Shown: positions 31,744 to 35,266 of the stretch, one piece after another
Position numbering within the stretch: position 1 is the first letter of the stretch
How the letters are laid out: each line of letters opens with the position of its first letter
Origin: Bacteriovoracaceae bacterium
GTDB taxonomy: Bacteria; Bdellovibrionota; Bacteriovoracia; Bacteriovoracales; Bacteriovoracaceae
Reading direction: 5' to 3'
DNA: 64,000 bases
NCBI GenBank assembly: GCA_013141065.1
Contig: JABFRR010000003.1
Coordinates: 252,415 to 316,414, forward strand
Notes under the pieces: generated by a model
What the model was told of the DNA's origin: nothing
The model's database searches: none
The model's input: only the letters and a program-made list of their open reading frames with translations
Made by a program: the position numbers and the translations under genes

Positions 31744-31821
31744 GGAGACGTGCCAGAGTGGTCCAATGGAACGGTTTGCAAAACCGTAAAGCCGGCGGTT
31801 CAAATCCGCCCGTCTCCTCCA
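31744..31821 (+). tRNA. tRNA-Cys(GCA)
   Basis: Acceptor GGAGACG/CGTCTCC, anticodon arm ACGGT-TTGCAAA-ACCGT, T-arm GGCGG-TTCAAAT-CCGCC, U discriminator, encoded CCA. Confidence 0.97.
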
Positions 31822-31943: not shown

Positions 31944-33173
31944 ATGAACATTGATGAATTAAAAAAGATTAAAAGCTTCATGATCGAGAAAGACAAGTCA
32001 GTCTTTAGGATTCGATACAGAACCATCGACAATATCCAGCATAGATTACCTCCTGATAAACATCCTGCATTTAGGAATAAAGAAGAAGCTCAAGACTGGA
32101 TTAAAACCAAGCAAGCTTTTTTAGCAGGTGAGAAATCTCGAATTGCTAGGATTGTAGCTAATAATAAACGTTATCCATTAGTTCAAGAAAAACTGAAGCT
32201 CTATTGTGATTATAAGCTTGAAAGTAAACTTAAAGACATTAAGACCATTGAAGCTTATTTCCAGAACTATATCTTTAATTTCTTCTTGTCCGTTAAACAG
32301 ACTCAAAACTTAAACGAATGGTCTTTGTTCTATCCTGAGTTCTTAAAGCATTTAAAGACAGTTAAAAGTAAGAAGGGAGTCCCATTAGCAGTAGAGACTC
32401 AACGTAAAATATGCTTCTATTTTAATGATTTTTTAGAGTACCTTTACAAGAATAAGCACACTACTACTTATATTGAAAAGTTAGACATTCCTGATTCTGA
32501 AGACTCTGAGTTAACCTTAGCTGAAGCATACTGGACCGAAGAAGAAATAGAGAAGGTATTACCTTTTTTAACTGAAGATGTACGCAATCTTTTTATCTTT
32601 GGATTAGAAACAGGTATGCGAATAAGTGAGATTTTAGGGGTTACTAGACAGCTTTATTATAAAGGTAGCCTACCTCGAAAAGAGATCAATGAGAGCTTAA
32701 TAAAGAACGGTATAAGCTATAACGGTTACATCAGGCTAGAGAGTCAACTTGATACTAACAAAGACGGTGTATTCACCTTAAAGCCTCTAAAAGGGAAGGA
32801 TAAGATCCTAAGTAAACATGCTCGTTACATTCCTGTAAGTGAGAAATGTTTTGAGATAGTTAAGCATTACAATAATAAAATTGTCGGAATGGGGACCGTT
32901 CAAGACAGAGACTCTAGAAATCTATTCTGGGAAAGTTTAACTAAGTCTAAGGTTAATACCGAAATACAGGATTCGTGTAAACTAGCTGGTATTCCCATTA
33001 AAACTACTCACTCTACTAGACATACTTTTTGTACTAATTTCCTTCTAAAAACTTCATCAGAATTTCTAACAAAGATCATAAGTGGTCACAGCAGTGATAA
33101 AGCCTTTAAAAGATACTTACACTTGATTGAAAGTTTAGCGGATAATAAGAACAGAAGTAGTGGATTGTTGTAA
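31944..33173 (+). CDS. tyrosine recombinase/integrase at tRNA-Cys
   Basis: ETGMRISEIL (R), HSTRHTF (HxxR), GHSS...KRY (H, Y); intact ORF next to the tRNA 3' end. Confidence 0.92.
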   Translation: MNIDELKKIKSFMIEKDKSVFRIRYRTIDNIQHRLPPDKHPAFRNKEEAQDWIKTKQAFLAGEKSRIARIVANNKRYPLVQEKLKLYCDYKLESKLKDIKTIEAYFQNYIFNFFLSVKQTQNLNEWSLFYPEFLKHLKTVKSKKGVPLAVETQRKICFYFNDFLEYLYKNKHTTTYIEKLDIPDSEDSELTLAEAYWTEEEIEKVLPFLTEDVRNLFIFGLETGMRISEILGVTRQLYYKGSLPRKEINESLIKNGISYNGYIRLESQLDTNKDGVFTLKPLKGKDKILSKHARYIPVSEKCFEIVKHYNNKIVGMGTVQDRDSRNLFWESLTKSKVNTEIQDSCKLAGIPIKTTHSTRHTFCTNFLLKTSSEFLTKIISGHSSDKAFKRYLHLIESLADNKNRSSGLL

Positions 33174-33572
33174 AAAGAGCAGCATCTACCTAAGCACCGC
33201 CCCTAAATTACAGAGAAAAATCACCTACGTTTCAGCTTGATCAAATAGCTTGAGTTAAACCAAGACACAGTTTCTGAGATGAAAAAACTACATTCTTTAT
33301 GGCCCGTGACAAGTGTAACTTCGTTCGGAAATACATTTTGTCGATGACAGAATAAATTAGATTGCATCTTTTAGATAATCATCTTTAAGAAAGCAAGTGG
33401 TTTCTAAATAATATTTCTCCTTTCCTCTAGAAAGAGTAAAAGTTTAGCCGCTATGCCCGCCGAACCTCGCACGAGCAGTGACTGCTTCATTAGATTTTCT
33501 ACCTGGAAGTTTTTATCTGTGAACTAATCCATTACCTTAAACAGAATTTCGCCTTAGCTTATTCATTCATCT

Positions 33573-34866
33573 TAATGGGCCTCATCCTTCATCCCTAATT
33601 CACCCGAAACAATCCTTATGCTTTACTTAACAATCGCTTTCCTGTCATCAAGAATAAGAAAGGGATTTGTTTCCTAATTCACTTCCATGTGAAATCAAAT
33701 GAACGAGATTCTATTAGCGTTTCTGTCCAACAAGTAATCGTAGTCGTTTTCTTTCCTTTAAGTACTCCTCGTAATCGTCATTGTATGTATCATTATTTTT
33801 TAATAAGTGAAGAGATAATGAGGAAATTTTTCTAGCCAATGCAACTTTGGCATCTTTGGCAGAAATTCCCTTGGCCCTAAGTGCATCGTGATAATCTCGC
33901 AAAGTTGTTTCAGTTCTCATTGCTGATTCTGCAGCTCCAATAAAAACATCTCTCAACTCACGACGACCGTGGACTCTTTTATTGCCATATATTTTACCAG
34001 CTGAAATTTGTATATGACGAACTAGCATACAGTATCCCCAGAATTGATGTTTGTTTCTGAATCTCTCTGGTTGACATACTATTGCTGCAATTACATTGGC
34101 ACGAACGATACTGATTCCAGGAATAGTCATTAAGTTTCTAATCGGACGATACTTTTTTTGATTATTTTTAAACCAATCTAGATATTTAATTTTTTCATTT
34201 TCAAGAAACTCGACTTGACTAAAAAGATTAGTGGCCACAAATCTTGCAGAATCATTTTTTAATTCAATACATCGATCTTTGTTTTTATAAAAATTGTTTT
34301 CATCCGTCTTGAGCCCTTCAGCTCTGAAGACGGATTTTAATCTATTTTTAAAACGTACAATTTCTTGAACAATGTCGAGATAGCCACTTACTGATGTTCT
34401 TAGTTGTGCCCAATGGGAATTATCGTGAAAAACTTCTTTTAAATGTCCGCATCGAAGTTCATTAGCTAGATGAATTGCATCTCTAAAATCTGTTTTTGCC
34501 CCAGATTTTTTTGCAACATATGTTGGATTACAAACTAACAATCGATCCACCTTTTCCTTGAGTGAAATATACAACCATTGTGAAATAGTTGACTCTTCGA
34601 ATGTGAGAATACGCTCACCATTTATTGACTCGATAACATTCCAGAGGTTCTTTTCTGAAGTGTCGACTGTTTTTCTCAGGATACAATCGCCAGTTTCATT
34701 CAAAACGGCAAAAGTTGATGTTGATGAATGGGCGTCAAGGCCGATAAAATACTTCATAAGCAGCACTCCTTGTGATCAAAATGTTTATAGAGATACAAAC
34801 ATTTTAATATCCACACGCTTAATTGCTGGCACGCTAGGTTTTTGCCTAGATGAGGCCCAAGTGGAT
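33573..34866 (-). mobile_element. IS110 family, IS1111-type insertion sequence
   Basis: 11-bp subterminal IRs TGGGCCTCATC (33576-33586 / 34849-34859), 7 nt from the left end and 3 nt from the right end; TA at both junctions; joining the flanks restores an 8-bp inverted repeat. Confidence 0.75.
33714..34757 (-). CDS. IS110-family transposase/recombinase, intact
   Basis: IGLDAH (D), TFEES (E), KTDFRDA (D,D); Tnp domain LMTIPGI...ISAG; AAGGAG RBS. Confidence 0.92.
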   Translation of the reverse strand: MKYFIGLDAHSSTSTFAVLNETGDCILRKTVDTSEKNLWNVIESINGERILTFEESTISQWLYISLKEKVDRLLVCNPTYVAKKSGAKTDFRDAIHLANELRCGHLKEVFHDNSHWAQLRTSVSGYLDIVQEIVRFKNRLKSVFRAEGLKTDENNFYKNKDRCIELKNDSARFVATNLFSQVEFLENEKIKYLDWFKNNQKKYRPIRNLMTIPGISIVRANVIAAIVCQPERFRNKHQFWGYCMLVRHIQISAGKIYGNKRVHGRRELRDVFIGAAESAMRTETTLRDYHDALRAKGISAKDAKVALARKISSLSLHLLKNNDTYNDDYEEYLKERKRLRLLVGQKR

Positions 34867-35266
34867 TACGCCCTAAGGCGGTGCTGCTTTCTTACCTTGT
34901 CAAATTGCTCTTCAGGTCAGCCAGACTGCAGAGTACTACAATAAAAACAAAAAATTGCCAGAGGCAGATAACTCTAAAAAAACTTCTTTGGTGAGCCAAG
35001 GTAGTAGCAAATAGTCTAAATATCGAGCGTTTTACCATCTGCCTTAAATTGATAGTTGGTAGAAAGAATAGTTGTTTCAGAAGTATTTTTTTCCTCAATG
35101 TTTGCATCAGTCAAAACTAAATCAGCACCAAGTGTTTTTTCATTTGATAAGACTTCCATCAACATTTTTAATTTTCCTAAAGTTTGATTTAAAGACTTTT
35201 AAAAATATAACGAAAAATGTTTTTAACTACCAGTTAAGAAATGGTTAGTGTTTTGTTTGAAAGCTT

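Follow-up and report, generated by a model that had tools for sequence, protein, structure and literature searches.

The insertion sequence at positions 33382 to 34902 (minus strand, counting one core TG copy) of the window, the whole 64,000-nucleotide stretch analyzed here, belongs by its sequence features to a known class, the IS1111-type elements with a seekRNA/bridge-RNA guide layout, and is a defective member of that class. It is very likely that this copy is bounded by a 2-nt TG core, that the guides of its family lie in two predicted loops (A and B), and that 97 bp have been lost from the window copy. An intact 3′ non-coding region would consist of module I (~125 nt, directly after the stop codon), loop A (86 nt) and loop B. 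The 3′-strand of loop A (..NNN-GAC..) would copy the 2 nt of the target to the left of the core plus the core itself, and its 5′-strand would be the presumed right-target guide; the 5′-strand of loop B (CAYURUYN) would complement the core and the left end, and its 3′-strand would copy the last 4 nt of the element plus the core. These segments are designated M1 (loop A, 3′-strand), M3 (loop B, 5′-strand) and M2 (loop B, 3′-strand), and by analogy with IS621 they would correspond to the left-target, right-donor and left-donor guides, respectively. As in ISEc11 and IS621, the transposase would be expected to pair the RNA with target and donor DNA and to exchange strands at the core, and the window copy could move only with RNA from intact siblings.

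Transposase and Class Membership

The transposase gene occupies positions 33714 to 34757 on the minus strand as an intact open reading frame encoding 347 aa from an ATG, and a GTG located upstream at 34766 would extend the protein to 350 aa. The protein matches the Pfam domains DEDD_Tnp_IS110 (PF01548, E = 5.8e-17) and Transposase_20 (PF02371, E = 4e-12), and its sole solved relative is the IS621 transposase, which is matched in the C-terminal domain only (E = 0.0045). One serine of the window protein aligns with IS621 residue S241, which was identified as catalytic in the structural study of that enzyme (Hiraizumi et al., 2024, PMC11208158). The features that define the IS110 superfamily, namely a DEDD/RuvC-like N-terminal domain, a Transposase_20 C-terminal domain and a conserved serine, are all present.

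Within this superfamily, IS1111 elements are recognized by a subterminal inverted repeat of the 12-bp class and by extended non-coding sequence on the downstream side of the gene (Siddiquee et al., 2024, PMC11187229). More than 40 homologues share a conserved inverted repeat within the 11–13-bp range (TAAGAAAGCAG/CTTGCTTTCTTA, 12 bp including one mismatch), and the non-coding sequence measures ~145 nt upstream of the gene versus 333 nt downstream (430 nt in intact copies). The IS1111 type assigned in the initial annotation agrees with the Pfam domains, with the subterminal position of the inverted repeats and with the long non-coding stretch behind the gene. The terminal extensions measure 8 + 4 nt when the core is counted on the left and 6 + 6 nt when it is counted on the right, compared with 7 + 3 nt in IS1111; the 8/4 count retains the 4-nt asymmetry of IS1111 but not its lengths. 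The C-terminal motif reads ML-R----SA(G) in place of the GL-P----S(T)G of IS1111, with the serine kept and the G and P replaced. A search of Rfam with the window region and four intact non-coding regions returned no family match, and only sub-threshold, miRNA-type chance matches were obtained, all of them outside the non-coding region. A scan for promoters and terminators found nothing above chance in the non-coding region, where no promoter stands out.

Element Ends, Core, and Copies

The genome contains ~10 copies of the element, whose shared sequence in copy alignments reaches exactly to the equivalents of positions 34902 and 33382, with divergence outside them, and which fall into two subfamilies, A (~95% identity to the window copy) and B (~85%). 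The window copy is 1521 bp long with one core TG counted, and intact siblings counted likewise are ~1617–1625 bp; measured from TTTGAC to AAAGATG, the lengths are 1525 bp and 1621–1629 bp, respectively. All copies share the left boundary ..TTTGACAAGG-TAAGAAAGCAG.. and the right boundary ..CTTGCTTTCTTA-AAGATG, and the flanks outside are unrelated and A/T-rich. The ends were also placed by ~50 homologues and by one empty site, the sequence ..GGAGGTAATAAATT-TG-ATTAAAC.., which is uninterrupted in a genome of the same genus at the exact insertion point of the copy L004. Because the empty site contains a single TG, and L004 has TG at both its left and right junctions, recombination is assigned to a 2-nt core. 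An NG core common to both junctions predicts that the base preceding G at the left junction, which is the third base of the NNN triplet, is identical to base 5 of the 6 nt at the right end; this identity always holds among the elements available (34 with left flanks and 44 with right flanks), and the empty site confirms it.

Read along the minus strand, the left end consists of the target-derived TT (34904–34903), the left core copy TG (34902–34901, placed by the empty site), the right-donor sequence ACAAGG directly after the core (34900–34895), and the left subterminal inverted repeat TAAGAAAGCAG (34894–34884), which is the inverted match of positions 33397–33386. The right end consists of the right subterminal inverted repeat CTTGCTTTCTTA (33397–33386, placed by the copy alignments and the empty site), the left-donor sequence AAGA directly after it (33385–33382), and the right core copy TG (33381–33380). 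The circle junction is predicted to read ..CTTAAAGA-TG-ACAAGGTAAG... Scans of genomes and metagenomes identified ~90 homologous loci with 53–88% protein identity, many of which are colinear across the whole 1.6 kb, including the 3′ non-coding region.

An intact transposase open reading frame is present in L002, L005, L006 and the window copy, and a broken one in L003, L004 and L007–L010. Both the gene and the non-coding region are intact in L002, and L003 and L004 have an intact non-coding region and identical ends; judged by sequence, full autonomy seems restricted to L002 in subfamily A and L006 in subfamily B. Two further copies are damaged: L005 (G000:C6) ends inside module I after GGAAACAAATCC and is without the guide region and right end, and L011 (G000:C17) retains only the 3′ third of the gene and the non-coding region. 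The copy L004 is inserted precisely within a gene’s TTG start codon, 8 nt past an AGGAGG ribosome-binding site, and this gene is uninterrupted in the same-genus genome G179 (L132, G179:C3). Full-length relatives (L046 and L047) were also found on contigs binned as Draconibacterium (Bacteroidota) and Leptolyngbyaceae (Cyanobacteria), which reflect either horizontal spread across phyla or binning errors in metagenome-assembled genomes.

Just past the right end of the window copy, positions 33365–33374 carry CTAAAAGATG, a near-repeat of the end sequence CTTAAAGATG, and the right flank of L010 holds AAGATGAATGAG, which resembles the context of the internal left-donor guide; these likenesses could be due to chance in A/T-rich DNA or could be a trace of target preference. 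On the same side, a tRNA gene (31744–31818, plus strand, 61 bits) is followed by a gene for a 409-aa tyrosine integrase (31944–33173, PF00589), an arrangement that is the usual start of an integrated island, and the insertion sequence lies ~200 bp past the integrase stop codon.

A Deletion in the Guide Region of the Window Copy

Alignment with L002, L004 and L006 showed that 97 bp are missing from the window copy between two 10-bp ATGAGGCCCA repeats in direct orientation, the fusion of which has left the scar GGATGAGGCCCA at positions 33576 to 33587 (minus strand). The initial annotation had taken position 33576 as an element end and the adjoining sequence as a ~140-nt 3′ non-coding end; this position is the deletion scar, and the non-coding region spans 33713–33382 here and ~430 nt in intact siblings. 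The lost 97 bp comprise the 5′-strand of loop A (the putative right-target guide), a hairpin, M1, the 3′-half of the outer stem, and M3. Both the left-target segment and the putative right-target segment are thereby deleted, and no GACTGGCAY motif was found inside the window element. The surviving guide is the left-donor segment AAGATG (M2, positions 33568 to 33573, minus strand), whose sequence is a sense copy of the element’s last 4 nt together with the core TG. The window copy thus retains the transposase gene, both ends and module I, with the left-donor guide only.

To judge from its sequence, the window copy most likely cannot make a working guide RNA, and as only the left-donor guide is left, it probably depends on the RNA of its siblings. 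The non-coding region of ISEc11 can act in trans (Siddiquee et al., 2024, PMC11187229); by analogy, the window copy could therefore still be mobilized by sibling RNA. The same deletion recurs in L031, an element from another genus. A third candidate, L071, was rejected as an instance of it, since a different deletion has removed module I and loop A in that element and the right-donor guide is kept.

Module I, a Structured Domain Downstream of the Gene

Almost all of the interval flagged by the initial annotation (33576–33713) is taken up by module I (33588 to 33713, minus strand), a structured RNA domain predicted from covariation across homologues. Its helices are P1a (33709–33705 with 33595–33591), P1b (33702–33695 with 33607–33600), P2 (33693–33689 with 33682–33678), P3 (33673–33663 with 33615–33606), and an inner helix, CUUUC/GAAAG, identified in alignment A3. 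In this alignment of 33 homologues, 87.4% of cells are paired under the model, and 16 of the 28 pairs have changed on both sides, compared with 8.7 in shuffles, none of 500 of which reached the observed value; sliding the partners by 1–3 columns gave a far lower score, and the single-sequence fold has a z of −2.4. Helix P3 is the stem that the initial annotation had drawn, in which GAAACAAATCC (33673–33663) pairs with GGATTGTTTC (33615–33606) over 10 bp with one bulge. The stem is upheld by a swapped-arm test in 36 homologues, where cognate arms gave −10.8 kcal/mol and swapped arms −7.9 kcal/mol (0 of 5000 permutations reached the cognate mean), with one competing pairing alternative remaining for the 3′-arm. 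The interior helices of the minimum-free-energy fold were rejected, as they pair worse across homologues than P3 and CUUUC/GAAAG.

The exact 10-nt direct repeat GTGAATTAGG that had been reported on the minus strand is present at 33682–33673 and 33603–33594, and its two copies have separate places in the fold. The 5′-copy consists of the 3′-strand of P2 (UUCAC/GUGAA, with compensatory UUUAC/GUAGA and GUAAA variants) and a junction, and the 3′-copy runs through the 3′-strand of P1b and an internal loop into part of P1a; the repeat is not retained as a repeat in other clades. No column of module I follows the flanks or ends beyond clade-confounded signals, and no guide was detectable in it. Three candidates were examined and set aside. 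A column in the 3′ repeat copy seemingly antisense to the first core base (40/43) was dismissed as clade-confounded, since the “wrong” base accompanies the TG core of L067 and L069; AUUGUUA was rejected as a right-donor guide, being not conserved in the clades with an AG core; and a CAGAAG-like string in the 5′-arm in one clade is part of P3, and clades ending in AAGATG lack such a copy.

The chances are about even that module I is the structural 5′ domain of a long precursor transcript, with a function in scaffolding, processing or stability. A role apart from guiding, either as a 3′-UTR stabilizer or terminator of the transposase mRNA or as a processing signal that frees the guide RNA, is a serious possibility that falls somewhat short of being expected. 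The domain begins 3 nt past the stop codon, has a long closing helix on its outside, matches no Rfam family, and has been retained in the window copy despite the loss of the guides, all of which would suit such a role, as would the joint loss of module I and loop A in L071; on the other side, there is no terminator-like U-tract after module I, and nothing separates an independent role from that of a scaffold in a longer guide RNA.

Guide-Like Segments in Loops A and B

A single MAFFT alignment of the whole non-coding region, folded with RNAalifold, was too misaligned, and anchored modules were therefore used: the non-coding region of each element was anchored on conserved motifs and compared with the element’s own junctions. 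The guide-like segments sit downstream of module I in the two loops, and three of the four covary with the junctions of their own element. For M1 (NNN-GAC-TGGCAC, in the 86-nt module), the three bases to the left of GAC are matched in 36, 38, and 37 of 38 elements, compared with 11–18 matches in shuffles, with more than 12 different triplets among 38 independent elements; position −4 shows a marginal match only. M2 consists of the 6 nt that follow the second GAGGCCCA; in nearly all of ~50 elements it is identical to the 6 nt behind the right inverted repeat, and it occurs in seven variants (AAGATG, CAGAAG, TAGGAG, AAGGAG, CAGACG, CAGGAG, and TAGAAG), with mismatches of one base each in three elements; in the column analysis, its variable positions were matched in 44 of 44 elements (z up to 8.5). 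M3, the segment CAYURUYN within ..AUCCAAC-CAUUAUCA-UGGCAC.., is antisense to the core plus left end TGACAAKG and pairs with 6–8 of these 8 bases; one position covaries as A-U (8), G-C (3), and C-G (1), and in several clades the antisense guides of the two loops have A or G opposite the first core base A. Donor-binding segments with predicted complementarity to the element ends, including the core, are thus found in the homologues.

On the right-target side, the column-by-flank correlation was without a signal for any right-flank base past the core (5152 tests, best z = 3.2), and no non-coding column followed left-flank bases beyond −4. Matches of at least 6 nt between the non-coding region and the right flanks, sense or antisense, were scattered at chance level with no consistent position, and the right-flank logo is weakly A-rich only. 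The complementarity of the 5′-strand of loop A to the right flanks modestly exceeds that of shuffles in two registers (P = 0.004 and <0.0005). This variable strand is the natural candidate for a right-target guide, a weakly supported one, so that the firmly specified target amounts to only ~4–5 nt (WTT-TG). The left-target guide of L002 (G000:C6) differs by one base from that of its siblings (CCATTTTTTGAC versus CCATTATTTGAC); the left flank of this copy is GCCATTTTTGAC, and the variant base gives the guide a better match to its own insertion site.

The folds of both loops place the antisense strand 5′ and the sense strand 3′. In alignment A2 (34 sequences), loop A is an internal loop with 12-nt strands between an outer stem and an inner hairpin, the 3′-strand being M1 and the 5′-strand the variable one; 13 of its 22 pairs show compensatory changes, and its stems include G-U pairs that are workable on this strand alone. 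In loop B, M3 forms the 5′ side and M2 the 3′ side, with a length-variable hairpin closed via the second GAGGCCCA; no convincing covariation was found for an outer closing stem of this loop. The remaining non-coding region, module III (33398 to 33567, minus strand), is conserved in all homologues and, when its alignment is inspected by eye, contains compensatory GCAG/CTGC, GTGG/CCAC, and GCCAC/GTGGC pairs. Its last ~70 nt (33398–33470) form a long hairpin, the 3′-strand of which enters the right inverted repeat (AAGCNNNCTRAA .. TTYAG-AA-NNNGCTTGC), and compensatory changes across clades were likewise seen by eye.

The internal sense copies of the junctions might instead be DNA relics, that is, pseudo-ends left by old tandem or nested insertions that do not act as RNA guides; being sense copies, they need no RNA as far as the sequence alone is concerned. 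This explanation is very improbable. More than 12 triplet variants and seven 6-nt variants are tracked across lineages, which would need continuing co-evolution; the copies occupy single-stranded sides of loops, and the stems that flank these loops have changed in a compensatory way, with the strand-specific G-U pairs among the changes; a third segment, antisense to the left end, covaries with the left end as well; and the layout matches that of experimentally proven seekRNAs.

The 5′-UTR and the Ends Proposed Earlier

The concept of the initial annotation, a bridge or seek RNA encoded in the 3′ non-coding region, is reasonable, and the specific guide, ends and interval that it named are wrong. 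What holds is the location in the 3′ non-coding region, where the guide segments of the family covary with the junctions; what does not is the flagged interval, which lies upstream of the guide loops. In that earlier model, the 138 nt at 33576–33713 were themselves the guide RNA, with AGTGAATTA serving as the donor guide for a circle junction and left end at TAATCCACT. It is in keeping with this model that an IS1111 guide RNA is encoded downstream of the transposase gene, that the stem is real, and that the 8/9 match of AGTGAATTA to the reverse complement of TAATCCACT (34868–34860) is present. The model is nevertheless scarcely credible. TAATCCACT is no end, as it lies 34 nt inside the true left end at 34902, in the 5′-arm of a 5′-UTR hairpin (34807 to 34868, minus strand) where it pairs with GTGGATAT (34814–34807), a pairing that has changed in a compensatory way to CCTAT/ATAGG in L026 and L045. 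In the 9-mer, GUGAA remains base-paired as the 3′-strand of a small hairpin, where it covaries with UUCAC, and the segments that do covary with the junctions are downstream of the interval. When the homologues were checked for covariation of the 9-mer with element ends, as the initial annotation had itself proposed, none was found: the left-end motif has changed in L026 and L045, and the 9-mer region did not follow.

The ends at 33573 and 34866 given earlier, which are contradicted by the copy alignments and the empty site, rest on an internal repeat, GGGCCTCATC/GATGAGGCCC, the left side of which is not conserved in L043, L044, L045 and L026, where the outer 12-bp inverted repeat is invariant. 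In the 5′-UTR (34821–34860), UUGGGCCUCAUC and GCGUGCCAG are perfect complements of the outer-stem strands of loop A, GAUGAGGCCCAA and CUGGCACGC; this complementarity, which explains the false inverted repeat, is found in this lineage and is not conserved in L043–L045 and L026. A nested arrangement, in which an inner insertion sequence bounded by GGGCCTCATC/GATGAGGCCC (34866–33573) lies inside a separate small mobile or hairpin-forming target sequence, is extremely unlikely: the inner 11–12-bp inverted repeat is perfect in this lineage and fits a spacing of 7 nt on the left and 3 nt on the right, but its left repeat is lost in the four elements above with the outer one kept, its right-hand repeat is present in intact copies as two direct copies that form RNA stems, no copy of the outer part without the transposase part occurs in this genome, the outer parts have diverged along with the inner ones between subfamilies A and B (~85%), the whole 1.6-kb unit is conserved down to ~60% protein identity, and the outer ends are defined by the empty site.

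Implications

The reading of the window element as a defective IS1111-type copy corrects the element boundaries for genome annotation, and an intact-looking transposase gene sits in a copy that is probably unable to guide itself. RNA-guided IS110/IS1111 recombinases are under development as programmable genome-editing tools, and this clade constitutes a natural data set of ~50 elements with an empty site that proves the 2-nt core and with three guides readable from junction covariation. Its specified target is very short, it has an additional structured RNA domain, and its guide module has been lost twice by the same repeat-flanked deletion. A broader proposal, that this clade of IS1111-like elements, present in predatory bacteria and many metagenomes, runs a relaxed-specificity RNA-guided recombination in which 2–3 target bases and a 2-nt core are read, and that module I is needed for it, is speculative and rather unlikely. 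If it were true, the conserved 125-nt module I would be without a counterpart in described seekRNAs or bridge RNAs and might serve to process guide RNA out of the transposase mRNA or to load it.

Comparison with Known Systems

ISPpu9, whose Ssr9 module is dispensable for transposition and whose modules move as separate circles (Pares-Guillen et al., 2025, PMC12288879), is also an IS110-family element with a modular region downstream of the transposase gene that varies between copies. In the window copy, by contrast, a simple deletion between direct repeats of 10 bp accounts for the missing piece and took guide segments with it.

The bridge RNA of IS621 (Durrant et al., 2024, PMC11208160; Hiraizumi et al., 2024, PMC11208158) shares with the RNA predicted here the two internal loops, each with one strand that pairs with the bottom strand and one whose DNA partner is the top strand, the bottom-strand-pairing strand copying, in the sense orientation, left-target or left-donor sequence together with the core. 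A 2-nt core common to target and donor, established here by the empty site, and the serine aligned with S241 are further points of likeness. The two systems differ in that the RNA is located 3′ rather than 5′ of the gene, the order of the strands within the loops is reversed, the core is NG (TG in the window) rather than CT, and the target guides are much shorter here; in addition, the similarity of the proteins is marginal (E = 0.0045, in the C-terminal domain only).

The closest layout is that of the IS1111 elements ISEc11, ISKpn4, and ISPa11, for which seekRNAs have been described (Siddiquee et al., 2024, PMC11187229). The family described here differs from them in its ~430-nt non-coding region, which is much longer and contains the extra module I and a clearly separate donor loop; in its 8/4-nt rather than 7/3-nt extensions and its motif ML-R----SA rather than GL-P----S(T)G; and in its firmly specified target of 2–3 bases plus the 2-nt core, compared with ~12 bp in ISEc11. 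The window copy differs further in having lost most of its RNA module. The shared features are the DEDD transposase, the ~12-bp subterminal inverted repeats, the long downstream non-coding region, and the match of target-derived flank bases to the RNA, here a predicted one. IS1111 seekRNAs are 82–96 nt long and carry the segment complementary to the top strand 5′ of the segment complementary to the bottom strand (Siddiquee et al., 2024, PMC11187229); the same antisense-then-sense order is seen here, and the 86 nt of loop A fall within their length range.
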